Positions 2,606 to 51,712 of a stretch of DNA of 64,000 nt are shown piece by piece. The stretch lies in NCBI GenBank assembly GCA_965199335.1, contig CBDAQZ010000004.1, positions 448,666-512,665 on the forward strand. The letters run 5' to 3'. This stretch comes from Alphaproteobacteria bacterium (GTDB lineage: Bacteria; Pseudomonadota; Alphaproteobacteria; CALMVH01). The notes under the pieces are model-generated. The model was not told the DNA's origin. It made no database searches and worked only from the letters and a program-made list of their open reading frames with translations. Numbering within the stretch: position 1 is the stretch's first letter; every line of letters begins with the position of its first letter. A program made the translations under genes and the position numbers.

Positions 2606-2677
2606 TGTCATCCTGGCCTTGAGCTAGGATCTCTATCCGCGCGGTGACAGATCCCGGGTCAAGCCCGGGATGACAGC
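2606..2677. repeat. Dispersed palindromic element, GTCATCCYGG...CCCGGGATGAC family, copy a
   Basis: Terminal inverted repeats gtcatcctgg and cccgggatgac enclose an internal palindrome atcccgggtcaagcccgggat. It is near-identical in architecture to the copy at 22234-22304. Confidence 0.6.
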
Positions 2678-2694
2678 CTATGGCGGTAAAGAAT

Positions 2695-3612
2695 TCACCG
2701 TCCCCGTGGATGCGCCGCCGCATGGACTTCCAGCAGCTTCTCGGCATCGATCTCGGTATAGCGCTGCGTCGTCGACAGCGAGGCGTGGCCCAGCAGTTCC
2801 TGGATCGCGCGCAGTTCGCCGCCGCCGGCCAGCAGGTGGGTCGCGAAGCTGTGGCGCAGGGCGTGCGGGGTGGCAGTTTCAGGCAGCTGCAATTGCCGCC
2901 GCACGGTGCGCATCTGCCGTTGCGCCACGCCAGGATTCAGCGCCTCGCCCTTTTCGCCGACGAACAGCGGTCCGCCCGGCGGCAGCGCATAGGGACAGGC
3001 GGCGACATAGGCGGCGAGCGCCTCGGCGACGACCGGCAGCAACGGCACCAGCCGTTGCTTGTCGCCCTTCCCGGTGACGCGCAGCATGTCGCCCTGTGCC
3101 TCGCCACGCGTCAGGCCCAGCGCCTCGGAGATACGCAGGCCGCAGCCATACAGCAGGGTGAACAGCGCCCGGTCGCGCAGGCCGACCCAGCCCTCGCCGG
3201 CATTCTCGGCCTGGTCCAGCAGGCGGCCGGTGTCGGTTTCGGTCAGCGGGCGCGGCAGCGAGCGCGGCAGCTTGGGGCTTTTCACCAGCGCGATCGCGGC
3301 GTTGTGCAGGATGCCGCGCCGGTCGAGGAACTTGTAGAAATTGCGCACCGACGACAGGGCGCGGGCGCGGCTTTGCGGGGCAAGCTCTTCACGTGCCAGA
3401 TGCGCCAGCCAGCTGCGGAAATCGCCGAGGGTCATCGCGCTGAGGATGCCGTGCGACACCGTGCCGCCGCGATGGCCGGCCAGGAAGCCCAGGAAGGCGA
3501 AGACATCCTGGCGATAGGCCTCCACCGTGTTGACCGACAGCCGCCGCTCGCCCGTCAGCCAAGATTGCCACTGTTCCAGGGAAGCCTGAGTGTCGGCGGC
3601 GACGGGAAGCAA
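2695..3612 (-). CDS. xerC: Tyrosine recombinase XerC
   Basis: An N-terminal SAM-like domain is followed by a catalytic domain with the R...HxLRHxxAT...Y signature (HALRHSFATHLL, LGHASLSTTQRYT). The DUF484 gene immediately upstream gives the classic yigA–xerC context. Confidence 0.9.
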   Translation of the reverse strand: MLPVAADTQASLEQWQSWLTGERRLSVNTVEAYRQDVFAFLGFLAGHRGGTVSHGILSAMTLGDFRSWLAHLAREELAPQSRARALSSVRNFYKFLDRRGILHNAAIALVKSPKLPRSLPRPLTETDTGRLLDQAENAGEGWVGLRDRALFTLLYGCGLRISEALGLTRGEAQGDMLRVTGKGDKQRLVPLLPVVAEALAAYVAACPYALPPGGPLFVGEKGEALNPGVAQRQMRTVRRQLQLPETATPHALRHSFATHLLAGGGELRAIQELLGHASLSTTQRYTEIDAEKLLEVHAAAHPRGR

Positions 3613-3737
3613 TCAATCCTCTCCCTCATGGGAGAGAGCAGGGTGAGGGTGTGCCGCAGCACCGCCGTAGCCCACACCCACACCCACACCCGGCGGGCTT
3701 GCGCCCGCCGACCTGTCCCATGAGGGAGAGGTGAAAT
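3613..3737. repeat. Structured intergenic element with nested inverted repeats and a (CACACC)4 tract
   Basis: Outer inverted repeat cctctccctcatggga (3617-3632) pairs with cccatgagggagagg (3717-3731). Inner inverted repeat gggtgagggtgtg pairs with cacacccacaccc, and a central hairpin cggcgggcttgcgcccgccg is also present. Confidence 0.5.
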
Positions 3738-4463
3738 TCACTCCGGCAAATCCAGCCAAGAGCGGATGCAGCGTTCGACGACGCGGGCCAGGAAGCCGAC
3801 CAGTTCGGTGCCCTGCCCGTCCTGGAACAGCTCATGCGAACGGCTGCCGAAGGCCAGCATGCCGACCGGCGCGTGGCGGGAGGCTTCCAGCCGCAGCAGC
3901 GCCTCGGACCGCACCAGCCCCGCGCCTTCGCCGTAGATCTCGGGATCGCCCTCGATGTCGCTGCGCAGCAGCACGTCCTTCCTACCCATCCAGAAATCGA
4001 CGCTGCCGGGCGGCACGATGCGGATATCGGCGCGGCTCATCGCCAGCACTTCCGGATCGTCGGCCTCGATCATCAGCGCCGCGATGTCGACATCCAGGTA
4101 CACCGCCAGGTCGCCAGTGACGGAGGTTATCATCTCCTCGAAGCTTTCGGCCTCCAGCAGCGCCAGCACGCAGGCATGGATGCGTGTCAAGAGGTTCAGG
4201 TTGGTGCGCGCATGCGCGATCATGTCCTGCCGTTCCTCGACCCCGCGCGCCAGGTCGGTCTGCAGCCGGCGCAGCATGAAGTGCTGGAAATCGACCACGC
4301 TGTTCGAGCGGCTATGCTTCTGCGTCGCGGGCGGCACCAGCTTGGCCAGCACGTCGGGATGCGCGGCGAAGAAATCGGGATGGCTGGCCAGATAGTCGAT
4401 CACCTCGTCCGCGCGGACCGGCGGGGAGGCGTTTCCGGTTGTCTCTGTAGAATCCTGGGCCAT
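3738..4463 (-). CDS. DUF484 (YigA-like) protein
   Basis: The N-terminus after M38 reads MAQDST...VIDYLASHPDFFAAHPDVLAKL, typical of DUF484, and the gene sits directly upstream of xerC. The annotated ORF is longer (to 4574) but would overlap the priA start. Confidence 0.65.
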   Translation of the reverse strand: MAQDSTETTGNASPPVRADEVIDYLASHPDFFAAHPDVLAKLVPPATQKHSRSNSVVDFQHFMLRRLQTDLARGVEERQDMIAHARTNLNLLTRIHACVLALLEAESFEEMITSVTGDLAVYLDVDIAALMIEADDPEVLAMSRADIRIVPPGSVDFWMGRKDVLLRSDIEGDPEIYGEGAGLVRSEALLRLEASRHAPVGMLAFGSRSHELFQDGQGTELVGFLARVVERCIRSWLDLPE

Positions 4464-4515
4464 GGTCCATGGTGAATCCGCCACGGCGCGTTTGCAAGCC
4501 AAATCGTTAATCATT

Positions 4516-6723
4516 ATGCCCATTGTACCGATGGACACTTCGACACCCACACCGCTTTCGGGACGCGCCGGCATATTGCTGCCGGTCGCGGTCGACCAGG
4601 TTTTCGACTATGCCCTGCCCCAGGGCGTGGAACTGGCATCTGGCACGTTCGTCTCGGTACCGTTCCGCGGCAAGGGCACCGCCGTCGGCGTCGTGTGGGG
4701 CGCGGCGCAGGGCGACGTCGCGCCGGGCAGGCTGAAGACCATCGGCGACGTGCTGGATCTTCCGCCACTGACGCCGGAACTGCTGGAATTCGTCCGCTGG
4801 GTCGCCGCGTACACGATGACGCCGCTGGGCATGGTGCTGCGCATGGTGATGAGCGCCCCCGCCGCCTTCGGCACCATGCCGCAGCGAACGCTGTACCGGG
4901 TGCCTGACACGCTGGACGGCGAGCTGACCCCTAAACGGCAAGCGGTGGTTGCCGTGCTGCGCGACGGCCATGCGATGACGCTGACAGACCTGGCGCGGGA
5001 GGCGGCGGTCGGGCCTTCGGTGATCAAGGCCATGGCAGCGCAGGGCCTGCTGGAACCGGTCACCGCCCGACGGCGCTCCTTGCGCGCCGGGACGCTGGAC
5101 CCCGAATACCGCACGCCGCACTTGACGCTGGATCAGAACGTGGCGGCGTCGAAGCTGCGCGGCGCCGTGGCGCAGGACAGATACAGCGTCACATTGCTGG
5201 ACGGCGTCACCGGCTCGGGTAAGACGGAAGTCTATTTCGAGGCGATCGCGCAGGCGCTTGCCATGGGGAAACAGGCGCTGATCCTGGTGCCGGAGATCGC
5301 ACTGTCGGCGCAGTTCGTCGAGCGCTTCCGCCCGCGCTTCGGCGCCACCCCCGCCTTGTGGCATTCCGACCTGACGCCCGCCCAGCGCCGCGACACCTGG
5401 CGCGGCGTGGCTGAGGGCGGCGTGCGCGTGGTGATCGGCGCGCGTTCCGCCCTGTTCCTGCCCTTCGCCGAGCTGGGCGTGATCGTGGTCGACGAGGAGA
5501 ACGACCCCAGCTTCAAGCAGGAGGAACAGGTCATCTACCAGGCGCGCGACATGGCGGTGGTGCGCGCCAAGCTGGAAGATCTGCCCGCTGTGCTGGTATC
5601 GGCGACGCCCTCGCTGGAGACGCTGGCGAATGTCGACGCGGGGCGCTACGTCCACCTGACCCTGCCCGCGCGCTTCGGCGGCGCGTTGCTGCCCGCGATC
5701 AGGCTGCTGGATTTGCGACAGACGAAGCTGCCGGTGCGGCGCTTCCTGTCGCAGCCGCTGGAAGAGGAGCTGCGCGAGACGCTGGCGGCGGGCGAGCAGA
5801 GCCTGCTGTTCCTCAACCGGCGCGGCTATGCGCCGCTGACCCTGTGCCGCACCTGCGGCCACCGGATGAAATGCCCCAACTGCACCGCCTGGCTGGTGGA
5901 ACACCGGTCGCAGGATCGGCTGATCTGCCATTACTGCGCCCATACCGAGCGCATCCCCGAACGCTGCCCGGAATGCGATTCGGAACATTCGATGGTCCCG
6001 GTCGGCCCGGGGGTCGAGCGCATCGCCGAGGAGGTGCGCGCCCTGTTCCCCGAAGCACGGCTGGCGCTGATGGCCAGCGACCTGATGGAGGGACAGGGCG
6101 TGCTGGCCGACACGTTGCGCCGCATCGGCAGGAACGAGATCGACATCATCGTCGGCACCCAGATCATCGCCAAGGGCCACCATTTTCCCAAGCTGACGCT
6201 GGTCGGTGTCATCGATGCCGATCTGGGCCTGGCCGGCGGGGATTTGCGTGCCGGTGAACGCACCTGGCAATTGATGCAACAGGTCGCCGGCCGCGCCGGC
6301 CGCGCCGAGCACGAGGGCCGCGCCCTGATCCAGACCTACGATCCGCAGCATCCCGTGATGCAGGCGCTGGTATCGGGCGACCGCGAACGCTTCATGCAGG
6401 TGGAGAAATCCGAGCGCCTGTCGGCCTCGATGCCGCCTTATACGCGGCTGGCGGCGCTGATCGTCTCGGGAGAGGACAAGCTGGCTGTCGAGCAAACCGC
6501 GATCACCCTGGGCCGGGTCGCGCCGCATGGGCCGGAGATCCGCGTCCTGGGCCCCGCCCCCGCGCCGATGTTCATGCTGCGCGGCCGCTTCCGCCACCGC
6601 CTGCTGCTGCGGACCGTGCGGACGCTGTCGATCCAGGCGATCGTGCAGGACTGGCTGGACCGCGTCGAAGTCCCGAATGGCGTGCGCGTCCAGGTCGACA
6701 TCGATCCTTACAGCTTCATGTGA
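4516..6723 (+). CDS. priA: Primosomal protein N' (replication restart helicase PriA)
   Basis: A DEAD-like helicase carrying the 4-Cys zinc finger CRTCGHRMKCPNCTAWLVEHRSQDRLICHYCAHTERIPERCPEC. The start was placed at MPIVPMD to avoid overlap with the divergent DUF484 gene. Confidence 0.9.
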   Translation: MPIVPMDTSTPTPLSGRAGILLPVAVDQVFDYALPQGVELASGTFVSVPFRGKGTAVGVVWGAAQGDVAPGRLKTIGDVLDLPPLTPELLEFVRWVAAYTMTPLGMVLRMVMSAPAAFGTMPQRTLYRVPDTLDGELTPKRQAVVAVLRDGHAMTLTDLAREAAVGPSVIKAMAAQGLLEPVTARRRSLRAGTLDPEYRTPHLTLDQNVAASKLRGAVAQDRYSVTLLDGVTGSGKTEVYFEAIAQALAMGKQALILVPEIALSAQFVERFRPRFGATPALWHSDLTPAQRRDTWRGVAEGGVRVVIGARSALFLPFAELGVIVVDEENDPSFKQEEQVIYQARDMAVVRAKLEDLPAVLVSATPSLETLANVDAGRYVHLTLPARFGGALLPAIRLLDLRQTKLPVRRFLSQPLEEELRETLAAGEQSLLFLNRRGYAPLTLCRTCGHRMKCPNCTAWLVEHRSQDRLICHYCAHTERIPERCPECDSEHSMVPVGPGVERIAEEVRALFPEARLALMASDLMEGQGVLADTLRRIGRNEIDIIVGTQIIAKGHHFPKLTLVGVIDADLGLAGGDLRAGERTWQLMQQVAGRAGRAEHEGRALIQTYDPQHPVMQALVSGDRERFMQVEKSERLSASMPPYTRLAALIVSGEDKLAVEQTAITLGRVAPHGPEIRVLGPAPAPMFMLRGRFRHRLLLRTVRTLSIQAIVQDWLDRVEVPNGVRVQVDIDPYSFM

Positions 6724-6772
6724 CAATAAGAGAGTTTTGACTCACAAACAATTTGATGATATATGATGGAAT

Positions 6773-7162
6773 ATGAATATCTCAGGCAAATGGATCCTGC
6801 CCTTTTGGCTTGCTGGCTGCGCCCTGGCGGTCTGGCATCTGCTGTATTTGGCGGGCTATAAAATCGACCTGGAGGGCTGGTTGTTCACGGCTTTCCTGTT
6901 GCTGTGCTATTCGTTGCCGCTGTTCCTGCTAACCAAATTTCCCCTTCCTGCGGAACGGTCGCCCGAGCGCTTGATCCTGCTGGCCATGCGGGTTTTGATC
7001 ATCGCGATCAGCCTAGCCACGCCATTGGTTCGGTTCCTGCCCAACTACAAGTCGTCAGCGATGGAAGCGCTGGTATACATCGCTTATCCCGTCGTCGAAG
7101 TCGGTATCATCGGGGTCATGGTGTTGATCGCAGGCGGTATAAAGCAATTCGGAAAACATTAA
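6773..7162 (+). CDS. Hypothetical small integral membrane protein, about four TM segments
   Basis: Hydrophobic 129-aa ORF sitting in a clearly AT-richer segment (6727-7230) than the flanking DNA. Confidence 0.4.
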   Translation: MNISGKWILPFWLAGCALAVWHLLYLAGYKIDLEGWLFTAFLLLCYSLPLFLLTKFPLPAERSPERLILLAMRVLIIAISLATPLVRFLPNYKSSAMEALVYIAYPVVEVGIIGVMVLIAGGIKQFGKH

Positions 7163-7230
7163 TTATTGGTAAATATCTATTGACTTTTTCTCTCTCATAA
7201 AGCAGACTGTGCGACTTTCTGGAGAAATTT

Positions 7231-7878
7231 ATGACCCACATCTATTCACCCCGCCACGAGGCTTACGCAATCGCCAGCCTAGAGCGGCCGCCAGTAACTC
7301 TGGAAGACTGCATGAAGCCGGTTCATGACTCGACCTTGTACAAGGTCGTTCAGCACGGCCTGAAAATGTTCGGTGAAATGGAAACCGTCGAAGTCAGGCC
7401 CCATTCCTGGCTGCTCGAATCCAAGAACAGGGAGAACATACAGGTCGTCCTGGCCAACGACGAAGAGTCCAAGCAGGTCGGACAGGTCAATTTGTCTTTT
7501 GAACCGGATGGCAAGATCACGCTGGAAGCTCACACCAGGAACAATCCTCTCTATCCCGACCTGACACGACGTTTCGACCTCAACGAGAGGACGAAGCGCT
7601 TGATCGGAACCGGTGAGATAACCGGCCCAAGAAGCGTGGAAAACCAGATCGCCGATGGCAGGGCGATCCTGCAGCAGATTGGCGAGGTCTTTTCGCGTGA
7701 TTCGTTGCGGTTCGCGGATGAGTTTCCCAGCACGATGAAAACTATAGATGCAGGCCTCGACAAGTTCCGCACCGATAGCCCGGCAGGCAAGGCGCAGGCT
7801 GGTGCCGCGGCATTGCGACAGCAGATAATCGTGCCCCTGTCCGGACCGACTGCCGCCGGAATGGGAAAGCCGGAATAA
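7231..7878 (+). CDS. Hypothetical protein; no family recognised
   Basis: Clean 215-aa ORF in the low-GC islet. No motif was recognised by eye. Confidence 0.4.
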   Translation: MTHIYSPRHEAYAIASLERPPVTLEDCMKPVHDSTLYKVVQHGLKMFGEMETVEVRPHSWLLESKNRENIQVVLANDEESKQVGQVNLSFEPDGKITLEAHTRNNPLYPDLTRRFDLNERTKRLIGTGEITGPRSVENQIADGRAILQQIGEVFSRDSLRFADEFPSTMKTIDAGLDKFRTDSPAGKAQAGAAALRQQIIVPLSGPTAAGMGKPE

Positions 7879-7909
7879 AATTGACGTTTGCATGGACGTT
7901 TCAGTCGGA

Positions 7910-8458: not shown

Positions 8459-8459
8459 A

Positions 8460-11197: not shown

Positions 11198-12733
<1,536 letters not shown>

Positions 12734-12820
12734 TGTCTTTTGTTGACCCGTCATCCTGGACAGGCCCGCAGGGCGGCGCTTCGGGATTTATAGCCCGCTT
12801 TCCGCAAGGGCGGAACGATG

Positions 12821-12849
12821 GACCCCGGATCAAGTCCGGGGTGACGATG
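12821..12849. repeat. Half-copy of the dispersed CCGGGATGAC palindromic element, copy b
   Basis: The sequence is gaccccggatcaagtccggggtgacgATG. It directly abuts the predicted start codon of the inserted ORF at 12847. Confidence 0.45.
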
Positions 12850-13302
12850 TACGCGGCCATATTGGTCGCGACCGCTACACCGCAGGCAGTGCGGGCGGAC
12901 CCCTGCCTTGCCTATGGCGAACAGACGACGCTATCGGGCACGATGGCCATGGTATCGCCATGCCCGTCCGCCGAGGAACCTGGCCTGCATCAGCGCGCCT
13001 GCAAGGATTCGATGCCGGCCCGCCGAGTGCTTGTCCTGCCACAGGCGATCTGCGTCATCCAGGACGGCGGACTCCACCTCGATGCCGCGACCGAGTCCGT
13101 GACGGAAGTCGAACTCGATTATCCTGGCCACAACCCCTTGCCACCGGGCAACTACAATCTTCCGGCGGAGGTTTTTCTTGCACCGGGGAGCAAAGTGACG
13201 GCGGTAGGCAAGCTGGCTCATGGCAAGGACAATTTCTGGGTGACGGATTATGTTTTCAAGGCAATATCGGTAAAGGCGCATAGCGATCATGCCCAGCCTT
13301 AA
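12847..13302 (+). CDS. Hypothetical secreted Cys-containing protein inserted between atpA and atpG
   Basis: Signal peptide MYAAILVATATPQAVRA. The stop lies inside a degenerate duplicate of the atpG 5' end (atgcccagccttaaggac at 13289). The annotated ORF begins at 12733 but that would overlap the atpA stop. Confidence 0.45.
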   Translation: MYAAILVATATPQAVRADPCLAYGEQTTLSGTMAMVSPCPSAEEPGLHQRACKDSMPARRVLVLPQAICVIQDGGLHLDAATESVTEVELDYPGHNPLPPGNYNLPAEVFLAPGSKVTAVGKLAHGKDNFWVTDYVFKAISVKAHSDHAQP

Positions 13303-13398
13303 GGACATTCGCATCGGCTCGGCCAGGTCGCCGCTCGGGATTGCCTCGGCGATAGGGGCAGGCAGAGAAAGCGCGAAAGCAATTCGCGTAACCGTCCT

Positions 13399-14010
13399 AT
13401 GAAAAAGTTCTGGCCATTCGTACTGGGCGTTCTCGCGTTGCCGGTTTTGATCGTAGTCTGGATAATTGTGGGCACACGGCAGTACGATGTTGCCGATGTC
13501 GTATATACGGTGCATTCGGGGGACGATTTGTGCCAGACCTTTGCCTATTCCAGGCGGAACTCCTCTCCCTATGCTGTAATTGCCGGGTTAGGAATATGGC
13601 TTGATGAAACTGGCAATCTGGTTTCCGACATATCCTTTCAAGCAGAAGAACCCGATGCCATCGGGTCCGGCCATGCCGTTGAGTTAACGCCGTTGACGCT
13701 GGTCTTCAACAAAGTCGGCTGGTCGTTTCATAATGCCAAAAAAGTGGTTGATCTGAACGTGCTGAATCTGATGATCGCTGATGAAAAGCTTACCGGGAGC
13801 GTGAAGGATGAATTCCTTTCCGGGCACTTCAACATCAGGTCCGATGTAAGCTTCCTGAAGCCGAGCAAATACCACTTTCATGCGGCTGTACCCTCGGCTG
13901 TCGTGAACTCGTTCGAAAATTGTTTGAATGTCATAAGCGAAGCCAGGAATTTGACGCCTGGCAATGTTGCCGCACGTTATTCGGGAGGTAAGTTCGATGC
14001 CCAGCCTTAA
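13399..14010 (+). CDS. Hypothetical membrane-anchored protein in the lower-GC insert, overlapping the atpG start
   Basis: N-terminal TM helix, and lower GC than the surrounding operon. The gene ends FDAQP* within the genuine atpG start sequence. Confidence 0.5.
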
Positions 14011-14884
14011 AGACCTCCGCACGCGCATCGGTTCGGTCAAGTCGACACGCAAGATCACCTCGGCGATGAAGATGGTCGCGGCCGCGAAACTGCGCCGTGC
14101 GCAGGAGCATGCCGAGGCGGGACAGCCTTACGCCGACCGCATGGCCGGCATGCTGTCGCGCCTGGCCGCCAACATCACGCCGGGACCGACGACATCGAAG
14201 CTGCTGACCGGCACCGGGCGCGACTTGGTGCACCTGGTCGTGGTCATCACGTCGGACCGCGGCCTAGCCGGCGGCTTCAACTTCACCGCCGCGCGCGAGG
14301 CGAGGCGGCTGACGCAGCGCCTGCTGTCGGAAGGCAAGACGGTCAAGCTGATCACGCTGGGCCGCAAGGGACGCGAATCGCTGCGCCGCGACCACGCCGC
14401 GCGCATGCTGGACTACGCCGATACCGGCACGACCAAGGTTTCCTTCGCCGATGCCGAGGCGGTCGCCGAATTCATGCTGGGCATGTTCGAGCGCCACGAG
14501 TTCGACGTCGCCAGCATCGTCTACAACCGCTTCAAGTCGGTGATCGCGCAGATCCCGACCGTGCAGCAGGTGATACCGTTCAAGCTGGAAAAACCTGTCG
14601 CCAACGAAAACGCCACCGTCGGCCCCAAGCCGGTGTACGAGTTCGAGCCCAGCGAGGAGGAAATCCTGGCCGCGCTGCTGCCGCGCAACCTGGCCGTCCA
14701 GATCTACCGCGCCCTGCTGGACAGCGCGGCAGGCGAGCAGGCGGCGCGCATGACCGCGATGGACAACGCCACGCGCAACGCCGGCGACATGATCAACAAG
14801 CTGACGCTGAACTACAACCGCGCCCGCCAGGCGTACATCACCAAGGAGCTGATCGAGATCATCTCCGGCGCAGAGGCAGTATGA
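13997..14884 (+). CDS. atpG: F0F1 ATP synthase subunit gamma
   Basis: [36 protein letters not shown] is the canonical gamma N-terminus. Confidence 0.92.
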
Positions 14885-17015: not shown

Positions 17016-17113
17016 TGTCATTCCGGATGTGGCAGCAAGCCATGTCCGGAATCCACAGGCTTTCGACGCGGCGACCGCAGCATGGATTCCGGCTCTGAGC
17101 CCGGGAATGACAG
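17016..17113. repeat. Dispersed palindromic element with nested inverted repeats, copy c
   Basis: Ends tgtcattccgga and cccgggaatgacag enclose an inner pair ccggaatcca and tggattccgg. The final bases gacaggag supply the SD for the next gene. Confidence 0.6.
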
Positions 17114-17122
17114 GAGTGTACG

Positions 17123-18253
17123 ATGACCGATAAATTCCGTCTCGACGAAGTTCACAGCTGGATGTTCGACCATGCCCTGCCGTTATGGTGCGATGCGGGG
17201 CAGGATGCGCCGGGGCTTGGTTTCCATGAGCTGGTCGGGCTTGACGGCAGGCCGGTCGATCCCGGGTTCAAGCGCATGCGCGTGCAGGCACGCCAGATCT
17301 ATACCTACTGCCATGCGGCGACGCTGGGCTGGAAGGGCCCGGCGCTGCAGGCGGCGGCGAACGGCGTCGACTTCATCCTGGCCCATGGCCGGCTGGCCGA
17401 TGGCGGCTGGGCGACGAAGCTGGGTCCCAGGGGTGAGCAACTCGACACAGAACCCAATTCCTACGACCATGCCTTCGTGATCTTCGCGCTCGGCTGGTAC
17501 TACAAGCTGACGGGCGATTGCGACCTGCTCGAACACATCCATCGCACGCTCGATTTCATGGAAGGGCACTTACGCCATCCGACCGGGCTCGGCTTTCTGA
17601 CGACGCGGACCCATCAGAAGATGGAGCAGGACCCCAACATGCATTTCCTCGAGGCGATGCTGGTCCTGTACGAGGCGACGGGCGAATCGCGCTTCGCCGA
17701 GGAAGCCCGCACGATCCTCACCCTGTTCGCCGAGCATATCCACCAGCCGGAAACCGCCGTGCTGCTGGAGGATTTCGACCTCGACTGGGAACCGCCCGGC
17801 GATCCCGCGCATCGCATCGTCGAGCCGGGGCATCATTTCGAATGGGCCTGGCTGCTGTGGCAGGCAAAGCGCATTGTCGGGGACGACGTCATGCCGTTCG
17901 TGCCGCAGATCTTCGCCTTCGCCGACAAATACGGCAGCAGTCCGGATGGCCTGGTCTATGACGACGTGTTCGAACATGGCACGGTACTGAACCCGACGCA
18001 CCGCACCTGGGTACAGACCGAGGCGATCAAGGGCTATATCACCATGGCCGAGTTCACCGGCGCGGATCATTCGGCCCGGATCGCGCAGTTGGTGGATATC
18101 CTTTTGGACCAGTACCTGAACACCGCGATCCCGGGCCTGTGGACGGACCAGCCGACAGCCGTATCGAAGGCGACCTCCGCGCCGGCCAGCACGTTCTATC
18201 ACATATTCCTCGCCTTTGCGGAATTGCAACGCTGGGGACGCGCGAGCGCCTGA
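17123..18253 (+). CDS. AGE-family epimerase/isomerase (N-acylglucosamine 2-epimerase-like, alpha/alpha toroid)
   Basis: A 376-aa protein with AGE-family sequence features throughout. Assigned by eye. Confidence 0.55.
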   Translation: MTDKFRLDEVHSWMFDHALPLWCDAGQDAPGLGFHELVGLDGRPVDPGFKRMRVQARQIYTYCHAATLGWKGPALQAAANGVDFILAHGRLADGGWATKLGPRGEQLDTEPNSYDHAFVIFALGWYYKLTGDCDLLEHIHRTLDFMEGHLRHPTGLGFLTTRTHQKMEQDPNMHFLEAMLVLYEATGESRFAEEARTILTLFAEHIHQPETAVLLEDFDLDWEPPGDPAHRIVEPGHHFEWAWLLWQAKRIVGDDVMPFVPQIFAFADKYGSSPDGLVYDDVFEHGTVLNPTHRTWVQTEAIKGYITMAEFTGADHSARIAQLVDILLDQYLNTAIPGLWTDQPTAVSKATSAPASTFYHIFLAFAELQRWGRASA

Positions 18254-19225: not shown

Positions 19226-19319
19226 TCGTCATTCAGGATCGCGCAGCGTATCCGGAATCCATACGGTCCATACACGTCAACAGGGTTATGGATTCCGGTC
19301 CTGCTGACCGGAATGACAG
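19226..19319. repeat. Dispersed palindromic element, copy d, closely related to copy c
   Basis: Ends cgtcattcagga and ccggaatgacag, with inner inverted repeats tccggaatccata and tatggattccgg. Confidence 0.6.
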
Positions 19320-19328: not shown

Positions 19329-19625
19329 ATGAATAACACCGCTGTACTGCTGATTCCCGAACACAGCCCCTGGCGCTACGCGCTGGTGTTCCCGATCATG
19401 TTCGTTCTGGGGCTGGAGCTGGTGCTGTTCGTGAGGCTGATCCGCAAGTACCGCAAGCCGTATATACCCCTGCTGGCGATGCTGGGCATGTTCGTGCTGA
19501 ACTTCGTGCTGTACGACCAGCTGCTGTTCCTGCCGCCGATCGAATTTCCTGCCGATGCTACGCCGCCACAACCGTCAGCGACACCCCCAGCACCCGTCCC
19601 CTCGTCTCCGGCCAAGCCTCACTAG
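19329..19625 (+). CDS. Hypothetical small membrane protein with a Pro/Ala-rich tail
   Basis: Two TM helices followed by a proline-rich C-terminus. Its start sits right after repeat copy d. Confidence 0.3.
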   Translation: MNNTAVLLIPEHSPWRYALVFPIMFVLGLELVLFVRLIRKYRKPYIPLLAMLGMFVLNFVLYDQLLFLPPIEFPADATPPQPSATPPAPVPSSPAKPH

Positions 19626-22183: not shown

Positions 22184-22214
22184 AAAAGCCGGCGCTGAGA
22201 CGCCGGCTTTTTTG
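22184..22214 (+). terminator. Rho-independent terminator
   Basis: The sequence is aaaagccggcgctgagacgccggcttttttg. Confidence 0.75.
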
Positions 22215-22233
22215 CGCGTGCAACTCTACTAAA

Positions 22234-22304
22234 CTGTCATCCCGGCCTGAGCCGGGATCTCTAACCGATCTGCAACAGATCCCGGGTCAGGCCCGGGATG
22301 ACGA
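22234..22304. repeat. Dispersed palindromic element, copy e, same architecture as copy a
   Basis: Reads gtcatcccggcctgagccgggatct...agatcccgggtcaggcccgggatgac. Confidence 0.6.
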
Positions 22305-27318: not shown

Positions 27319-27344
27319 TCGGAACGTCTTCCATCGTCATCCCG

Positions 27345-27373
27345 GGTCGAGCCCGGGATGACGAAGAGGGATT
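27345..27373. repeat. Single-hairpin copy of the dispersed element, copy f
   Basis: The sequence is gtcatcccgggtcgagcccgggatgac. Confidence 0.55.
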
Positions 27374-32848: not shown

Positions 32849-32869
32849 CCCTCTCCCGCTGGGAGAGGG
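32849..32869. repeat. Perfect hairpin CCCTCTCCC-GCT-GGGAGAGGG, GGGAGAGG family
   Basis: It lies between the convergent maeB and VOC genes, next to a second inverted repeat gggtgagggg...cctctcaccc. Confidence 0.5.
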
Positions 32870-42904: not shown

Positions 42905-44095
<1,191 letters not shown>

Positions 44096-45484: not shown

Positions 45485-45574
45485 CCGATTGCTCGAATTT
45501 TATTGTCGTTGCGGGTGGAGCGTAATACTATCTGCCGTGTTCAATATCGCGATCAGCCCATCGGGAGCCGGACT

Positions 45575-45964: not shown

Positions 45965-45985
45965 ATCGGCGCAGCAATTATAGGA

Positions 45986-46014
45986 AACCCGGCCTGAGTG
46001 CCGGGTTTTTTTTA
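45986..46014 (+). terminator. Rho-independent terminator
   Basis: The sequence is aacccggcctgagtgccgggtttttttta. Confidence 0.75.
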
Positions 46015-46110
46015 TGAAAGATTGATTTGCCAGTACGGTCTGAAAAGCAGAAAATGCTTCATGTACCAAGATAGTCTTGGTTGCCGGACAACGAAAGTAC
46101 AGAGAGTACC

Positions 46111-46473
46111 ATGTCGACTAGAAACGAGCTGATCGAAGCCCAGGTTATGGCCCTTGTCCTAAGGGCCGGCAGTATCGATGCGGCGGTAAAACGTGCCCCT
46201 TTGACCAAAAACCAGACGACGAGGGTCGAAAGGAGCATCAGCAGGGTTGCCGAAGCCCTGCATGTCGGCGCCGGCACCGCCAGTTGCGGGATCGGCGTTT
46301 CGCGCATGGCCAACAGGGTTGTCGGCGATATCGTGGCCGATACGGAAGCCAAGGCGGGCGACGGCGTGGACACCCAGGCGGAGATCGATGCAAACGCCCG
46401 GGCGATAGATCTGCTGGGGCTGCTGGATACACATGTGCGGCAGGATCTGGCCCAGAAAGAAATTCCTTCCTGA
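46111..46473 (+). CDS. Hypothetical protein
   Basis: An ORF of about 120 aa with no recognised family. Confidence 0.3.
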   Translation: MSTRNELIEAQVMALVLRAGSIDAAVKRAPLTKNQTTRVERSISRVAEALHVGAGTASCGIGVSRMANRVVGDIVADTEAKAGDGVDTQAEIDANARAIDLLGLLDTHVRQDLAQKEIPS

Positions 46474-46689
46474 CAGCGCAGGATGGTCGTTAATGCGGCG
46501 TGTAATGTCGTGAAGGAAGCGGTGATTCCGTGTTGCAAAGATGCCAAGTCGGTAAAAAAACTTGGTTAAATATGCAATCAAGGCTTGAGCCGCGCGCCTC
46601 TCGCACGTATGAGACGTTCGGTATTCGGGCGCGACCCTGGCCACTCCGGGCAGGGCGTGCCGACCGATGACATTATAAGGAAGATGGAA

Positions 46690-46956
46690 ATGAAGACTCT
46701 CGCTGCTGCCGCTCTGTCGCTGGTTCTGGTTGGATCCGCTGTGCCTGCTTTCGCTCAGATGGGCAACGAAACCACCACGACCACCACCACTGACAACACC
46801 ACCACGATGGGCAACAACACCACCCATCACCACAAGAAGACGACGCATCACAAGAAGACCCACAAGCACACCATGGGCAACAACGCGTCCAACACCACCA
46901 GCTCGACCACCACGGAAGAGCTGAACAACACCGAAGCAACCAACACCACCAAGTAA
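46690..46956 (+). CDS. Small secreted Thr/Asn/His/Lys-rich low-complexity peptide, 88 aa
   Basis: RBS ggaag, signal peptide MKTLAAAALSLVLVGSAVPAFA, then a TTTTTTT...HHHKKTTHHKKTHKH tract with a terminator after it. Confidence 0.45.
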   Translation: MKTLAAAALSLVLVGSAVPAFAQMGNETTTTTTTDNTTTMGNNTTHHHKKTTHHKKTHKHTMGNNASNTTSSTTTEELNNTEATNTTK

Positions 46957-47019
46957 GGTCGGTGCAGGCCGCCGGGTCGGAATTCATGTTCTGACCGGCG
47001 GGCTTCATGTTTGAATGAA

Positions 47020-47058
47020 CCGGCGGACCTTCCGATGGAGGGTCCGCCGGTTTTGTTT
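47020..47058 (+). terminator. Rho-independent terminator
   Basis: The sequence is ccggcggaccttccgatggagggtccgccgg followed by ttttgtttt. Confidence 0.7.
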
Positions 47059-47070
47059 TGCGGGTGACCC

Positions 47071-47691
47071 ATGACAATCGTTTCCACGGCCCTGACCGGC
47101 TTCCTGGTCGGCGGCAGCCTGATCGTCGCGATCGGCCCGCAGAACGCCTTCGTGCTGCGCATGGGGCTGCTGCGCCGCCATGTACTGCCGCTGGTGCTGT
47201 TCTGCGCCACCTCCGATGCGCTTCTGATCCTTGCCGGCGTTCTGGGCTTGGGCGCAGTGCTGTCGGCCCACAGGCAGGCGGCGGATGCGATTGCCATCGG
47301 CGGCGCACTGTTCCTGCTATGGTACGGCTGGAAGTCGCTCAGGCGCGCCCTGCATCCCGCCGGCCTCGACCAGGCTGCCAGCCAATCCGTGTCGCTGCGC
47401 CGGTCGTTGCTGACCTGCGCTGCCTTCACCTGGGGCAATCCGCATGTCTACCTCGACACCGTATTGCTGATCGGCAGCCTGTCGCTGCCCTATCACGGGC
47501 TGGAGCGCGCCGCCTATTCGGGGGGCGCGATGGCCGCCTCCTATGCCTGGTTCGGCGCCCTGGGTTACGGTGCTGGGTTTCTGGTGCCGCTGTTCCGGCG
47601 CCCCGCGACGTGGCGCTTCCTCGACCTTTCCATCGCCCTGGTCATGTGGGCGATCGCCCTGCGGCTGATTTATTCGACGCTTTTCCGATAA
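47071..47691 (+). CDS. LysE/ArgO-family amino acid exporter
   Basis: A 206-aa protein with six TM helices and LysE-type motifs (GPQNAFVL, NPHVYLDT). Confidence 0.8.
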   Translation: MTIVSTALTGFLVGGSLIVAIGPQNAFVLRMGLLRRHVLPLVLFCATSDALLILAGVLGLGAVLSAHRQAADAIAIGGALFLLWYGWKSLRRALHPAGLDQAASQSVSLRRSLLTCAAFTWGNPHVYLDTVLLIGSLSLPYHGLERAAYSGGAMAASYAWFGALGYGAGFLVPLFRRPATWRFLDLSIALVMWAIALRLIYSTLFR

Positions 47692-47816
47692 AGCCATTGC
47701 GTGTCGGCGCGGCCTTGTCTAAACCCTTGTGCTTCCGCGCGTGTAGCAATACAGGCGCGGGAAACTGTGTGTTCGTCATGCCGCTGTACGCGTAGGCGCG
47801 AAAGCGCCTTCACCGA

Positions 47817-47892
47817 AGGGGTGTAGCTCAATTGGTAGAGCGCCGGTCTCCAAAACCGGAGGCTGTGGGTTCGAGCCCCCCCGCCCCTGCCA
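47817..47892 (+). tRNA. tRNA-Trp with anticodon CCA
   Basis: Cloverleaf AGGGGTG...CTCCAAA...TTCGAGC...CGCCCCT-G-CCA, in the conserved position upstream of secE. Confidence 0.85.
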
Positions 47893-47939
47893 GCTGCAAT
47901 GACCGACACAAAACGATTTAACGAGGCGAAACGATCACG

Positions 47940-48137
47940 ATGGCTAGAACGACGCCGGCGCAGTTTGCGCGGCAGGTACGACAGGAAACGGCCAAGATCA
48001 TCTGGCCCACAAGGCGCGAAACGGTCACCACCACGATCGTCGTTTTCGTCATGGTGGCGTTTGCCTCGACGTTTTTATTCATTGCCGACCAGCTGATCGC
48101 CTTCGCGGTGCGCTGGACACTGGGATTGGGAGCTTAG
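47940..48137 (+). CDS. secE: Preprotein translocase subunit SecE
   Basis: A 65-aa single-TM protein immediately upstream of nusG. Confidence 0.85.
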   Translation: MARTTPAQFARQVRQETAKIIWPTRRETVTTTIVVFVMVAFASTFLFIADQLIAFAVRWTLGLGA

Positions 48138-48139
48138 CC

Positions 48140-48676
48140 ATGTCGGCGAAATGGTATGTCGTGCACGTGCACTCGGGTTTCGAAAAGAAGGTCATGCAGG
48201 CCATCCAGGAAAAGGCCGAGAAGATGAATATCGCGCACCAGTTCGAGGAGATCATGGTCCCGACCGAGGGCGTGACCGAGATCCGCCGCGGCCAGAAGAT
48301 CAACACCGAACGCAAGTTCTTCCCCGGCTACGTGCTGGTCAAGATGGACCTGACCGACGAAAGCTGGCACCTAGTGCGCAACGTCGCCAAGGTCACCAAT
48401 TTCCTGGGCGGCGGTTCGCGCCCGCAGCCGATATCGGAATCCGAGGCCGAGCGCCTGATCAGCCAGATGAAAGAGGGCGCGGAGAAGCCGCGCCGTCCGT
48501 CGATCACCTACGAGATCGGCGAGAGCGTGCGCGTGGCCGACGGCCCGTTCACCTCGTTCAACGGCATCGTCGAGGAGGTCGACGAGGAGCGTTCGCGCCT
48601 CAAGGTCGCCGTCTCGATCTTCGGCCGCTCCACCCCTGTCGAGCTGGAATACACCCAGGTCGAAAAGGCGAGCTGA
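48140..48676 (+). CDS. nusG: Transcription termination/antitermination factor NusG
   Basis: WYVVHVHSGFEKKV is the NGN domain, and the C-terminal KOW domain ends ...GDRVRV-like. Confidence 0.95.
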   Translation: MSAKWYVVHVHSGFEKKVMQAIQEKAEKMNIAHQFEEIMVPTEGVTEIRRGQKINTERKFFPGYVLVKMDLTDESWHLVRNVAKVTNFLGGGSRPQPISESEAERLISQMKEGAEKPRRPSITYEIGESVRVADGPFTSFNGIVEEVDEERSRLKVAVSIFGRSTPVELEYTQVEKAS

Positions 48677-48777
48677 CCCTTAGTTTCTTTCACTGTCGTG
48701 GGAGGTCAGCCATGACCGCACCACGGCGCTTCCGGGGCCCTGCACAAAGCCGGGCCCCAACATTTGGAGGTTTATAA

Positions 48778-49212
48778 ATGGCACCGAAGAAGATCGTGGG
48801 CTTCATCAAGCTCCAGGTCCCGGCCGGAAAGGCGAATCCCTCGCCCCCGATCGGTCCTGCGCTTGGACAGAGAGGCCTCAACATCATGGAATTCTGCAAG
48901 GCGTTCAACGCCCGCACGCAGGAGATGGAGCCCGGGATGCCGATCCCGGTCGTCATCACCGCGTTCGCGGACCGGACGTTCAGCTTCGAGATGAAAAGCC
49001 CGCCGAACTCCTACTTCCTGATGAAGGCGGCAGGGATCGACAAGGGCAGCCAGACGACCGGCACGAAGTCGTCGGGCACGATCAAGCGCTCCCAGATCAA
49101 GGAGATCGCAGGCAAGAAAATGCAGGACATGAACGCAACGACGGTCGAGGGCGCAATGGCGATCCTCGAGGGTTCGGCGCGTTCGATGGGCCTGGAAGTG
49201 GTGGAGGGCTAA
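48778..49212 (+). CDS. rplK: 50S ribosomal protein L11
   Basis: A 144-aa canonical L11. Confidence 0.97.
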
Positions 49213-49215
49213 ACC

Positions 49216-49914
49216 ATGAACGGAAAACGTTTGAAGACCGCAAGGGCCACAGTGACGATCGACAAGGTCTACACCGCCGCCGAAGCCGTGAAGCTGGTCA
49301 AGAGCAACGCCAAGGCGAAGTTCGACGAGACGGTCGAGATCTCCATGAACCTGGGCGTCGATCCCAAGCAGAACGACCAGAACGTGCGCGGCATGGTTCA
49401 GCTGCCCAACGGCACCGGCAAGGACATCAAGGTTGCCGTGTTCGCCAAGGGGGACAAGGCTGAAGCGGCAACGGCCGCAGGGGCCGAGTTCGTGGGCGCG
49501 GAAGACCTGGCCGACCGTATCCTGGCGGGCGAGATGGGCTTCGACCGCGTGATCGCCACGCCGGACATGATGATGGTCGTCGGCAAGCTGGGCAAGGTCC
49601 TGGGCCCGCGCGGCCTGATGCCGAACCCGAAGCTGGGCACCGTTACGCCGAACGTCGTGGAAGCGATCAAGGCGGCCAAGGGCGGCGCGGTCGAATTCCG
49701 CGCCGAGAAGGCGGGCATCGTCCACGCCGGCATCGGCAAGGCCAGCTTCAGCGAGGAACAGCTGCTGGGCAACCTGATCGCCTTCGTCACGGCCGTGAAC
49801 CGCGCCAAGCCGTCGGGATCGAAGGGCAACTACATCAAGAAGGTAGGCCTGTCCTCGACCATGGGCCCGGGCGTCAAGCTGGACCTGCAGGCCCTGCTGG
49901 CAGAGGCCGTGTAA
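49216..49914 (+). CDS. rplA: 50S ribosomal protein L1
   Basis: A 232-aa canonical L1. Confidence 0.97.
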
Positions 49915-49945
49915 CTAACCCCTCCTCTAGTGGGAGACGGAGCAG

Positions 49946-49978
49946 AAGCCGGGCCGAAAGGTCCGGCTTTTTGCTTTT
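49946..49978 (+). terminator. Rho-independent terminator after rplA
   Basis: The sequence is gccgggccgaaaggtccggc followed by tttttgctttt. Confidence 0.7.
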
Positions 49979-50146
49979 GGCGTCTGCAAAAAGGAGCGTT
50001 TTTGCCGGAACGACCCCATGTACAGTAGCCATGTATCTGATTCTGCAGGACTAAAAAGTGCGATTCGACAGCAAGGCCCGGAGTGCCGGCGACGGGTGCT
50101 TGTCTATGATCCCGATAACGGAGATATTGAGACAAGGACGCATGCC

Positions 50147-51220
50147 ATGCCCGACTTACGAACCACCCAGCCGCCCATAACCCGCGATCCGCGCTGGGAC
50201 AGCATTGTGGCGCGCGATGCCGATGCCGATGGCCGGTTCTGGTATTCGGTGCTGACGACCGGCGTCTATTGCCGGCCCTCCTGCCCGTCGCGCATGGCCA
50301 GGCCTGAAAATGTGACCATCCACGCCACGCTAGCCGAGGCACAGGCGACGGGATACCGCCCGTGCCGCCGCTGCAACCCGCAGGGGCTGTCGGTTGCGGC
50401 GGAGAATGCCGCGCTGGTCGTCAAGGCCTGCCGCCTGATCGAAGCGGCGGAAGACGTGCCCAGTTTGAACGAACTGGCCGAGGCCGCGCAGCTCAGCCCG
50501 CACTACTTCCACCGGCTGTTCAAAAGCGTCACCGGCGTCACGCCCCGCGCCTATGCCATGGCGCACCGCGCGGCGCGCGTGCGGCAGGGGCTGACGACGG
50601 ACCGGACGGTGACCCAGGCGCTGCACCAGGCGGGCTTCGCCTCCAGCGGCCGGTTCTACGAGGCAGCGCCGGGCATGCTGGGCATGAGCCCCGGCCGCTA
50701 CCGCGCCGGCGCCCCGGGCGAAACCCTGCATTTCGCCATAGGACAGTGCTCGCTGGGCGCGATCCTGGTCGCCTCCAGCGCCAAGGGGGTGGTGGCGATC
50801 CTGATCGGCGACGACCCGGACGCCCTGGCCCGCGACCTGCAGGACCGGTTCAGGCACGCGCAGCTGGTCGGCGCGGATGCCGGCTACGAAATGCTGGTGG
50901 CAAAGGCGATCGGCCTGGTCGAAACGCCCGGCACCGGGCTGGACCTGCCGCTGGACATTCGCGGCACCAGCTTCCAGCAGAAGGTATGGCAGGCGTTGCG
51001 GCAGGTACCGGTGGGCCGGACCGCAACCTACAGCCAGATCGCGGCCAGTATCGGCGCGCCGGGGTCGGTCCGCGCCGTGGCGGGCGCCTGCGCCGCGAAC
51101 CCGCTGGCAATCGCCATACCCTGCCACCGCGTCGTGCGCACCGATGGGAGCCTGTCGGGCTATCGCTGGGGCGTGGAACGCAAGCGGGCGCTGATAGAGC
51201 GGGAGGCGGCTACGGGGTGA
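50147..51220 (+). CDS. ada: Bifunctional Ada: AraC-type regulator plus O6-methylguanine-DNA methyltransferase
   Basis: N-terminal Cys4 methylphosphotriester domain (CRPSCPSR...CRRC), an AraC HTH, and the C-terminal MGMT active site PCHRVV. Confidence 0.85.
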   Translation: MPDLRTTQPPITRDPRWDSIVARDADADGRFWYSVLTTGVYCRPSCPSRMARPENVTIHATLAEAQATGYRPCRRCNPQGLSVAAENAALVVKACRLIEAAEDVPSLNELAEAAQLSPHYFHRLFKSVTGVTPRAYAMAHRAARVRQGLTTDRTVTQALHQAGFASSGRFYEAAPGMLGMSPGRYRAGAPGETLHFAIGQCSLGAILVASSAKGVVAILIGDDPDALARDLQDRFRHAQLVGADAGYEMLVAKAIGLVETPGTGLDLPLDIRGTSFQQKVWQALRQVPVGRTATYSQIAASIGAPGSVRAVAGACAANPLAIAIPCHRVVRTDGSLSGYRWGVERKRALIEREAATG

Positions 51221-51665
51221 CGTGGAGTGCGTATTGCCCCGATCCCATCGGATCCTCGGGCGCGTGCACGCCATAGACGACATCCAGGAAGATTGTCCCG
51301 TTCGGCGCCTTCAGCGCCGACGGCAATGCCGTCAAAACCCCGTTCCGGAAAGTCACGGTCCTGCCCCGGTCGGTCACTGCAAGCTCGGGGGAGGTGGTAA
51401 CGTCGGTGGTTTTTCCCGAAACGTCGGTCGCCGAGACGACAATCGTATTCGGTGTACCGACGGCGACCTCGGGAATCCCGGGATTTGCTACCATGCCGTC
51501 GTTTTCTGTCAGAATGGCGCCGTTCAATGTGACGGTGAGCCTGTACTCGGGATAGGCTCTTTCACCGCTGGCCGCTTTGTATGAGACCAGCACCAGAAGA
51601 AAAGCCAATGCGCTTGGCCGCAAGCTATCCATCAGACCGGAAACAGTCTTCTGATCGATTTTCAT
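51210..51665 (-). CDS. Hypothetical secreted protein
   Basis: Signal peptide after MKIDQKT. It lies downstream of leuS, with a repeat half-copy just upstream. Confidence 0.45.
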   Translation of the reverse strand: MKIDQKTVSGLMDSLRPSALAFLLVLVSYKAASGERAYPEYRLTVTLNGAILTENDGMVANPGIPEVAVGTPNTIVVSATDVSGKTTDVTTSPELAVTDRGRTVTFRNGVLTALPSALKAPNGTIFLDVVYGVHAPEDPMGSGQYALHVTP

Positions 51666-51683
51666 CCTATGCCTCCGTCGAAA

Positions 51684-51712
51684 GGGATCCCGGATCAAGT
51701 CCGGGATGACAG
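51684..51712. repeat. Half-copy of the dispersed element, copy g
   Basis: The sequence is gggatcccggatcaagtccgggatgacagc. Confidence 0.5.

Follow-up and report, generated by a model that had tools for sequence, protein, structure and literature searches.

Dispersed CGTC-tagged REP units, probable cognate sites of an Ssn-type nuclease, in a 64-kb stretch of an alphaproteobacterial genome

Hairpin units at seven intergenic loci

A 64000 bp stretch of the genome of an Alphaproteobacteria bacterium (GenBank assembly accession number GCA_965199335.1; contig CBDAQZ010000004.1, coordinates 448666 to 512665), referred to here as the window, was examined for a family of dispersed palindromic elements, seven copies of which had been listed in an earlier note on this DNA. 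Direct reading of the sequence found the motif at each of the seven loci, and open reading frame (ORF) lists and Pfam searches placed all seven between genes, as had been claimed. A structure scan identified the building block of the elements as a unit of ~28 nt made up of an unpaired (C/T)GTC tag, an 8-bp stem, a loop, the complementary arm and a short tail. The 13 units found are given below, with scores from a covariance model, R1, that was trained exclusively on units from outside the window, and with matches to the published pattern for Ssn-related motifs (SRMs), HGTCWYN(0-2)YYVSBRHN(0-5)WNVSBRGN(0-2)RNCYNB (Chenal et al. 2025, Nat Commun 16:2388, PMC11893778).

2606 to 2633, plus strand: dimer A left unit, TGTC-ATCCTGGC-CTTGA-GCTAGGAT-CTC; R1 31.6 bits, E 1.2e-5
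2634 to 2647: dimer A spacer, 14 nt
2648 to 2675, minus strand: dimer A right unit, TGTC-ATCCCGGG-CTTGA-CCCGGGAT-CTG; R1 43.8 bits; SRM match
12749 to 12790, plus strand: dimer B left unit, CGTC-ATCCTGGA-(19-nt loop)-TTCGGGAT-TTA; structure scan; orthologous unit in the relative L121 (see below)
12819 to 12846, minus strand: dimer B right unit, CGTC-ACCCCGGA-CTTGA-TCCGGGGT-CCA; R1 46.5 bits, E 2.4e-9; SRM match
17016 to 17055, plus strand: dimer C left unit, TGTC-ATTCCGGA-(17-nt loop)-TCCGGAAT-CCA; R1 20.3 bits
17083 to 17112, minus strand: dimer C right unit, TGTC-ATTCC(C)GG-loop-CCGGAAT-CCA; R1 19.9 bits
19227 to 19261, plus strand: dimer D left unit, CGTC-ATTCAGGA-(12-nt loop)-TCCGGAAT-CCA; R1 17.7 bits
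19289 to 19318, minus strand: dimer D right unit, TGTC-ATTCCGGT-CAGCAGG-ACCGGAAT-CCA; R1 26.4 bits
22235 to 22261, plus strand: dimer E left unit, TGTC-ATCCCGGC-CTGA-GCCGGGAT-CTC, with a 4-nt loop; R1 38 bits
22276 to 22303, minus strand: dimer E right unit, CGTC-ATCCCGGG-CCTGA-CCCGGGAT-CTG; R1 42.4 bits; SRM match
27335 to 27363, both strands: symmetric doubly tagged hairpin, CGTC-ATCCCGGG-TCGAG-CCCGGGAT-GACG; R1 34.9 and 22.1 bits
51684 to 51711, minus strand: singleton, TGTC-ATCCCGGA-CTTGA-TCCGGGAT-CCC; R1 45.1 bits; SRM match

Five of the seven loci (2606 to 2675, 12749 to 12846, 17016 to 17112, 19227 to 19318 and 22235 to 22303) carry head-to-head dimers with the tags outward and spacers of 14–28 nt, and the other two carry the singleton and the doubly tagged single hairpin. 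The tag is CGTC or TGTC in every unit, its GTC always immediately before the palindrome. Stems are 8 bp long throughout, with one bulge of 1 nt in dimer C right unit. The stem starts with AT in 12 units and with AC in one (12819 to 12846), the latter being a variant common in Sphingopyxis. Eight units have a loop of 4–5 nt, mostly CTTGA but also CCTGA or CTGA. The tail is CCA in five units, CTC in two, CTG in two, CCC in one, TTA in one and, in the doubly tagged hairpin, GAC on both strands; the base 3' of the palindrome is C in 11 of the 13. RNA fold prediction gave strong folds for whole elements, from -15 to -50 kcal/mol with z-scores of -3.2 to -8.0.

The earlier note had described terminal inverted repeats and three sizes of element, both of which follow from this arrangement of units and dimers. 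The supposed terminal repeats are two inverted copies of one self-folding hairpin unit, and the sizes are better described as a singleton, a doubly tagged hairpin and head-to-head dimers with short (4–5 nt) or expanded (7–19 nt) loops. What had been called a nested form of ~95 bp is an ordinary dimer of units with expanded loops, in which the inner ccggaatcca and tggattccgg repeats correspond to the 3' stem arm and CCA tail of each unit. Two of the listed copies are real but needed adjustment: that at 12821 to 12849 is the right half of the 98-bp dimer at 12749 to 12846, whose left unit had been overlooked, and that at 27345 to 27373 lies 10 nt away, at 27335 to 27363.

The doubly tagged CGTC-stem-loop-stem-GACG form was also seen at nine unrelated loci among the sequences retrieved from other genomes (L008, L013, L025, L026, L076, L079, L109, L156 and L191), and may have arisen by collapse of a head-to-head dimer or be a distinct product.

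Frequency of the units relative to chance

The number of copies is far beyond chance. A degenerate 22-nt pattern of the unit matched the window six times against 0.27 expected, and six or more matches were seen in none of 100 dinucleotide shuffles. The SRM pattern matched four times, at 2675, 12846, 22303 and 51711 on the minus strand, whereas the same number of dinucleotide shuffles averaged 0.57 matches and never gave more than three. Enrichment was weak for the bare 11-mer CCCGGGATGAC with one mismatch allowed (8 matches against 2.5 expected).

The R1 model recovered 12 oriented units with E values from 2e-9 to 0.03, every one of them at the seven loci; dimer B left unit (12749 to 12790) was not detected because its 19-nt loop is too long for the model. 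All other R1 matches at E<1 were antisense reads of these same hairpins. As R1 finds units at the seven loci and none elsewhere in the window at this threshold, the earlier list of loci is complete for the window, giving a density of 7 loci in 64 kb, or ~1 per 9 kb. A repeat search also recovered the 29-nt family (family D3), and found that dimers A and E share 84% identity across 55 nt, spacer included (family D6).

Membership of the CGTC-tagged REP superfamily

The earlier note had compared the elements to repetitive extragenic palindromes (REPs) and bacterial interspersed mosaic elements (BIMEs). This was right and can be made precise, as the units have the features of the CGTC-tagged REP superfamily (Di Nocera, De Gregorio & Rocco 2013, BMC Genomics 14:522, PMC3733652), also known as NTS or SRMs. 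Members of that superfamily have a CGTC or TGTC (or CCTC) tag, a stem of 8–9 bp opening with A-T pairs, a loop of 4–5 nt and a CCA tail, and mostly form head-to-head dimers, defined as having the tags outward. They lie between co-directional or convergent ORFs near the 3' end of the upstream one, are found predominantly in Alphaproteobacteria including the sphingomonads, and include dRS3 of Neisseria and RPE-4 and RPE-6 of Rickettsia (PMC3733652). The window units resemble the CGTC-2 and CGTC-1 formats, a sub-family assignment made by stem and loop lengths alone, in their tag, 8-bp AT stem and short tail, of which CCA is the commonest, and eight of them also in a loop of 5 nt (4 nt once), and the window loci resemble the superfamily in their head-to-head dimers and in their position near an upstream stop codon. 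They differ in the expanded loops, in CTC and CTG tails that taken together are about as common as CCA, and in the one AC start.

The corresponding Neisseria motif, NTS (CGTCATTCCCGCGMAVGCGGGAATCYRG), is the target of SsnA, a 94-aa single-domain GIY-YIG nuclease (cd10448) that acts on single-stranded DNA (ssDNA) only, cuts only the strand bearing the tag, a few nucleotides 5' of the motif, and does not bind RNA (PMC11893778). Cleavage by SsnA is governed by the three bases (GTC) before the palindrome and binding by the C after it, and Ssn homologues with SRMs occur widely, Rhizorhabdus wittichii, Sphingomonas, Devosia, Wolbachia and Rickettsia being examples, with ssn genes often flanked by the motif on both sides in the manner of an insertion sequence (IS) (PMC11893778). 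The window units share HGTC, palindrome and C with NTS and the SRMs. However, the Neisseria stem, ATTCCCGC, differs from the window stems ATCCCGGR, ACCCCGGA and ATTCCGGA, and, because recognition by SsnA depends on sequence as well as structure, a differently tuned Ssn homologue would be needed here. The dRS3/NIME, RPE-4 and RPE-6 repeats are placed in the same superfamily (PMC3733652), and the tag-stem-loop-stem-tail unit was observed in N. gonorrhoeae (L124). In Neisseria the units form large clustered mosaic arrays and phage integration sites, whereas those in the window are dispersed, single or paired, and in Rickettsia the units are often inside genes, whereas those in the window are intergenic. 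The role in limiting transformation described for Neisseria may not carry over to this organism.

Related units and ssn genes in other genomes

A scan of 185579 species genomes for the exact 24-mer ATCCCGGNTCNNGNCCGGGATGAC found it in at least 120 stretches of genome-contig DNA. The matches listed cover many phyla and include Sphingomonadales, Comamonadaceae (Polaromonas, Ramlibacter), Hyphomicrobiales, Actinomycetota (including a 2.7-Mb Propionicimonas contig), Binatia chromosomes, Desulfobacterota, Bacteroidota, Patescibacteria and others. At most of these loci a partner unit was found 20–40 nt away, with an identical tag and tail and a stem that is different but self-complementary (for example gtcattgcgggcttgacccgcaatcca, gtcaccccggacttgatccggggtcca and gtcattcccgcgaaagcgggaatcca). 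Across the fetched loci, the 4-mers preceding such hairpins were CGTC 148 times and TGTC 101 times, against a median of 9 over the 256 4-mers, in a count where the search pattern itself forced GTC onto one unit per locus. The tail was CCA in 133 of 249 units.

GIY-YIG genes with flanking CGTC units, tags outward, were found in Novosphingobium aromaticivorans plasmid pNL2, a Sphingobium megaplasmid, Azospirillum lipoferum and Sinorhizobium meliloti, and in N. gonorrhoeae the GIY-YIG gene is located among clustered CGTC units in both orientations. A GIY-YIG consensus was used solely to retrieve annotated genes from a plasmid collection. Two screens of the sequences with regular expressions for GIY-YIG motifs returned no real gene, whereas tblastn and an Ssn profile found two tandem ssn paralogues, missed by those screens, in Sphingopyxis witflariensis (L035; WGS accession number NZ_NISJ01000008.1; coordinates ~1335 to 1637 and 2750 to 3073, within 1240 to 3170). 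Pfam detected the GIY-YIG domain in all three proteins scanned, from S. witflariensis, Sphingobium and N. gonorrhoeae. The S. witflariensis genes are flanked by CGTC-ACCCCGGA-CTTGA-TCCGGGGT-CCA and CGTC-ATCCCGGA-CTTGA-TCCGGGAT-CCA units arranged as hetero-dimers. The window unit at 12819 to 12846 matches the first of these exactly, and the second, near the second ssn gene, has a stem and loop identical to those of the window singleton at 51684 to 51711. The unit upstream of the second ssn gene has its 3' stem arm split by an insert of ~1 kb.

The GIY-YIG gene was the sole recurrent neighbour found for CGTC units. No recurrent transposase was found near the 120 motif-bearing loci, where ORF clustering gave housekeeping genes and spurious high-GC frames, and ssn itself was present at one of 213 motif-bearing loci sampled at random.

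The exact 24-mer was also present in 93 viral or prophage stretches from IMG/VR (L127 to L219), one of which (L185) carries seven copies in 14.6 kb; no Ssn homologue was detected in these 93 contigs, either by tblastn or with a profile of real Ssn sequences. In Salegentibacter (L022), Stappia (L074) and Alteromonas lipolytica (L052), the hairpin unit ends longer repeats that are ~265–455 bp apart (start to start), with ~60 nt upstream of the unit conserved between both copies, and genomes of ~41% GC are included. The arrangement points to larger composite repeats with an SRM unit at their end.

Proposed role as nuclease sites

As ssDNA, each unit would fold into an 8-bp hairpin that leaves (C/T)GTC unpaired on the 5' side and C on the 3' side and, as happens to units of this design in Neisseria and Wolbachia, a small GIY-YIG nuclease of the SsnA type would bind the unit and cleave it a few nucleotides on the 5' side of the tag. 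The window units would then be cognate to a nuclease of this kind whose gene lies, or once lay, in another part of the genome. What is copied appears to be the head-to-head dimer, because dimers A and E have their spacer in common, and either Ssn or host repair may spread the units. As the units sit just past stop codons in co-transcribed or convergent spacers, they would also be transcribed as strong RNA hairpins, with any effect on mRNA stability predicted to be secondary.

The assignment of the units to the family is well supported by their anatomy, their excess over chance, the identical units beside ssn genes in a sphingomonad and covariation across the family, in which all eight stem pairs were altered on both sides among 60 distinct units, along with the compensated pair that separates the atpA-atpG units of the window and L121 (see below), while the presence of the cognate nuclease in this organism and its cleavage of the units are inferred. 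Taken together, that the seven loci are CGTC-tagged REPs of the NTS/SRM type and the sites of an Ssn-type nuclease encoded, now or formerly, elsewhere in the genome is given a probability of about 0.75.

Several observations weigh against this interpretation. Loops of 7–19 nt are present in five of the 13 units (in dimers B, C and D), where published families have 4–5 nt, and just the four units noted fit the strict SRM pattern. The 60 units of the covariation count had been preselected as paired, which inflates the percentage paired. No ssn or GIY-YIG gene was found in the window by tblastn (E<=1), and the best match in a six-frame profile search had an E value of 5. To our knowledge, strand transfer, which has been shown for Y1 enzymes, is not known for the GIY-YIG Ssn proteins, which makes the spread of the units hard to account for.

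Gene context

The surroundings of the seven loci are as follows.

2606 to 2675 (dimer A): 19 nt past the stop codon of a minus-strand gene for a XerC/D-like recombinase; upstream of a tRNA gene
12749 to 12846 (dimer B): 15 nt past the atpA stop codon, before atpG
17016 to 17112 (dimer C): 4 nt past the atpC stop codon; followed by a gene for an AGE-family epimerase, ATG at 17123
19227 to 19318 (dimer D): preceded by a gene for a 272-aa protein and followed by an ORF for a small membrane protein
22235 to 22303 (dimer E): between convergent genes, each with its own terminator
27335 to 27363 (doubly tagged hairpin): preceded by the gcrA stop codon and followed by a formyltransferase-like gene, the two genes being on the minus strand
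51684 to 51711 (singleton): 14 nt past the leuS stop codon; the next minus-strand ORF opens with an ATG at 51666, 17 nt beyond the end of the element

The flanking genes are co-directional at six loci, convergent at one and divergent at none, and the element starts 4–36 nt from the upstream stop codon at six of the seven. The view that the elements often sit right after terminators could not be upheld, as sequence reading and terminator scans made this clear for one copy only, that at 22235 to 22303, which lies between two convergent terminators. One of these terminators (~22195 to 22221) was read by eye; the scan missed it, apparently misled by A-T pairs that continue the stem into its T-run. 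The scan also reported a hairpin at 2573 to 2591, on a strand with no gene to terminate.

The elements had also been thought to supply a ribosome-binding site or leader to the downstream gene. However, the bases that follow ...ATGAC differ from copy to copy (AGCCT, GATGT, AGGAG, AGTAA, GAAGA, GAAGA and AGCTA), and the single good Shine-Dalgarno sequence, AGGAG at 17112 to 17116, six bases before the ATG at 17123, has one base in common with the element. No Shine-Dalgarno sequence was found before the ATG at 19329. The ORF at that position looks real, as reading the sequence of the relative L121 by eye shows a similar small membrane protein, though tblastn against L121 gave nothing at E<1e-3. 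For the ORF at 12847 there is neither a Pfam match nor an L121 homologue. The closeness of the elements to start codons reflects short spacers and not a supply of initiation signals. At 17107 to 17136 the element end ATGACA resembles a -35 hexamer, in a promoter-like pairing with TAAATT, but this match is probably fortuitous since the putative -10 falls within the epimerase coding sequence.

Comparison with a relative and the extra DNA in the atp operon

The nearest accessible relative is a metagenome contig, L121, in which the atp region is syntenic and the epimerase shares 74% protein identity. At this distance intergenic DNA cannot be aligned, and insertion junctions are therefore not definable. 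At the atpA-atpG site L121 carries a head-to-head dimer in the same place, the right unit of which has the stem ACCCTGGA/TCCAGGGT where the window has ACCCCGGA/TCCGGGGT, a difference of one compensated pair. Of the five loci in the syntenic stretch, the remaining four lack a conserved counterpart in L121. The L121 intergenic region corresponding to 22235 to 22303 contained no unit, the L121 spacer orthologous to that at 19227 to 19318 is too short for the element, and different palindromes are present at the site of 17016 to 17112. Most copies are thus lineage-specific, and the atpA-atpG copy is either old or maintained.

Relative to L121 (atpA and atpG being at 11204 to 12733 and 13998 to 14884 in the window), ~1.15 kb of extra DNA (12847 to 13997) is present between dimer B and atpG. 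It includes the ORF at 12847 to 13302, a degenerate duplicate of the 5' end of atpG (13287 to 13355; the real start is at 13998), and an ORF of 50% GC that encodes a membrane segment at the N-terminus (13399 to 14010). The extra DNA starts 1 nt past the tag of the unit at 12819 to 12846, which suggests, by analogy with SsnA and from a single case, a start where cleavage of the SsnA type would be expected. As L121 has the dimer without the extra DNA, the dimer does not come with that DNA, and a role of the element in rearrangement at this insertion, as had been proposed, is not established from one case.

The retention of an orthologous dimer in a relative with 74% identity, together with a stem pair changed on both sides, could indicate that this dimer has been exapted, either as an intercistronic mRNA barrier that helps to set the alpha:gamma ratio or, because 1.15 kb of foreign DNA with a duplicated atpG 5' end starts 1 nt from a tag, as an Ssn-cut hotspot of recombination. 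Such an exaptation is nevertheless regarded as rather unlikely.

Alternative explanations

It is very unlikely that the elements are classical GTAG-type REPs, or the REP doublets known as REPINs, mobilised by a REP-associated tyrosine transposase (RAYT, an IS200/IS605-like Y1 transposase) as are the BIMEs of E. coli and the REPINs of Pseudomonas. The two designs are alike in the tagged ssDNA hairpin, in inverted dimers with a spacer that are likely copied, in their intergenic placement and in the small dedicated nuclease flanked by repeats, but GTAG REPs have a GTAG tag and an HUH/Y1 enzyme, whereas the systems considered here have a CGTC tag and a GIY-YIG enzyme. The GTAG tag was found in none of the 13 units, all of which have (C/T)GTC, no tyrosine transposase gene flanked by CGTC units was found in any species (PMC3733652), and the gene that recurs beside such units is that for the GIY-YIG protein and not a transposase gene. 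A relationship to miniature inverted-repeat transposable elements (MITEs), which are deletion derivatives of an IS whose DDE transposase recognises terminal inverted repeats and leaves target-site duplications, is highly improbable. The dimers of 70–98 bp open with TGTCAT and close with ATGACA and so resemble terminal inverted repeats, but the MITE-like appearance noted earlier is superficial, as each "inverted repeat" is a complete hairpin unit that is also found alone, at 51684 to 51711 and 27335 to 27363, the stems covary, and the "terminal" sequence is kept only as GTC and A(T/C). None of the seven copies is flanked by direct repeats that could be a target-site duplication, and neither a parent IS with these ends nor an IS-type transposase for the family was found in the window or the literature.

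The elements could alternatively act mainly as RNA, forming 3'-UTR or intercistronic hairpins that stabilise the upstream mRNA or attenuate read-through, for example to balance the expression of atpA and atpG, in which case the link to a nuclease would be irrelevant in this genome. Their position just past stop codons and absence between divergent genes, their strong predicted folds, the G-T pairs in some stems (units starting at 2606 and 12749) and the compensated stem change in the conserved atpA-atpG dimer are consistent with this, and many CGTC units have been argued to act as RNA (PMC3733652). However, no T-tract follows the hairpins, the dimers put a unit on both strands and hence show no strand bias, and the other four loci of the syntenic stretch are not conserved in L121. 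Rfam searches, at gathering thresholds for the whole window and at E<=1 for 12.6–22.4 kb, returned tRNAs and chance matches, none of them on the elements. The unpaired GTC tag and the 3' C have no rationale at the RNA level but match the determinants of SsnA, which binds no RNA, and a primarily RNA-level function is considered improbable. The units might instead be inert relics, decaying since ssn was lost from the lineage and without present activity, as the CGTC families have been proposed to be possibly heading to extinction (PMC3733652). The lack of an ssn gene in the window fits this, as do degenerate units with mismatches or G-T pairs in the stem (2606 and 19227), with the enlarged loops of dimers B, C and D or with a tail not starting with C (at 12788). 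Against this, six units have perfect 8-bp stems, the consensus loop and scores of 35–46 bits, the similarity of dimers A and E including their spacer suggests fairly recent copying, and 64 kb is a small sample in which to find a single-copy gene that was met at just one of 213 motif-bearing loci. That the units are inert relics is also considered improbable, and their identification as CGTC-tagged REPs and probable sites of an Ssn-type nuclease is preferred.

Other repeats in the window

A second, unrelated family of palindromic repeats, CCTCTCCC-GCNGG-GAGAGG, has five copies in the window (1481 to 1497, 2574 to 2590, 3619 to 3638, 3713 to 3730 and 32851 to 32867) and two in L121 (7624 to 7640 and 7700 to 7716), and may be another REP-type family. 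Two tandem minus-strand ORFs of 354 and 356 aa (55793 to 56857 and 57627 to 58697), which we take to be putative flagellin genes, contain 300-nt blocks that are 99–100% identical (55712 to 56552 and 57546 to 58392), a similarity that points to a recent duplication or gene conversion. A repeat finder also reported short, imperfect, ACC/CAC-rich tandem repeats at 46773 to 46912.

Significance

Descriptions of this class of repeat go back to 2013, and under the names dRS3 and RPE further still; the partner nuclease became known in 2025. New here are only the occurrence of these repeats in an apparently poorly sampled genome, the tuf region of which shares 82% nucleotide identity with a Sphingomonadales metagenome-assembled genome and the EF-Tu of which is alone in its 90% cluster, together with some local variants, namely the expanded loops and the doubly tagged hairpin. 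The window by itself adds little on the general biology of the family, especially on how it spreads. However, the repeat family of this alphaproteobacterium now has a precise name and a testable partner protein, and in annotation such hairpins should not be called terminators, small RNAs, MITEs or leaders bearing a ribosome-binding site. If an Ssn protein is encoded in this genome, the units mark possible sites of ssDNA cleavage during replication, conjugation or transformation, and could shape recombination and gene flow.

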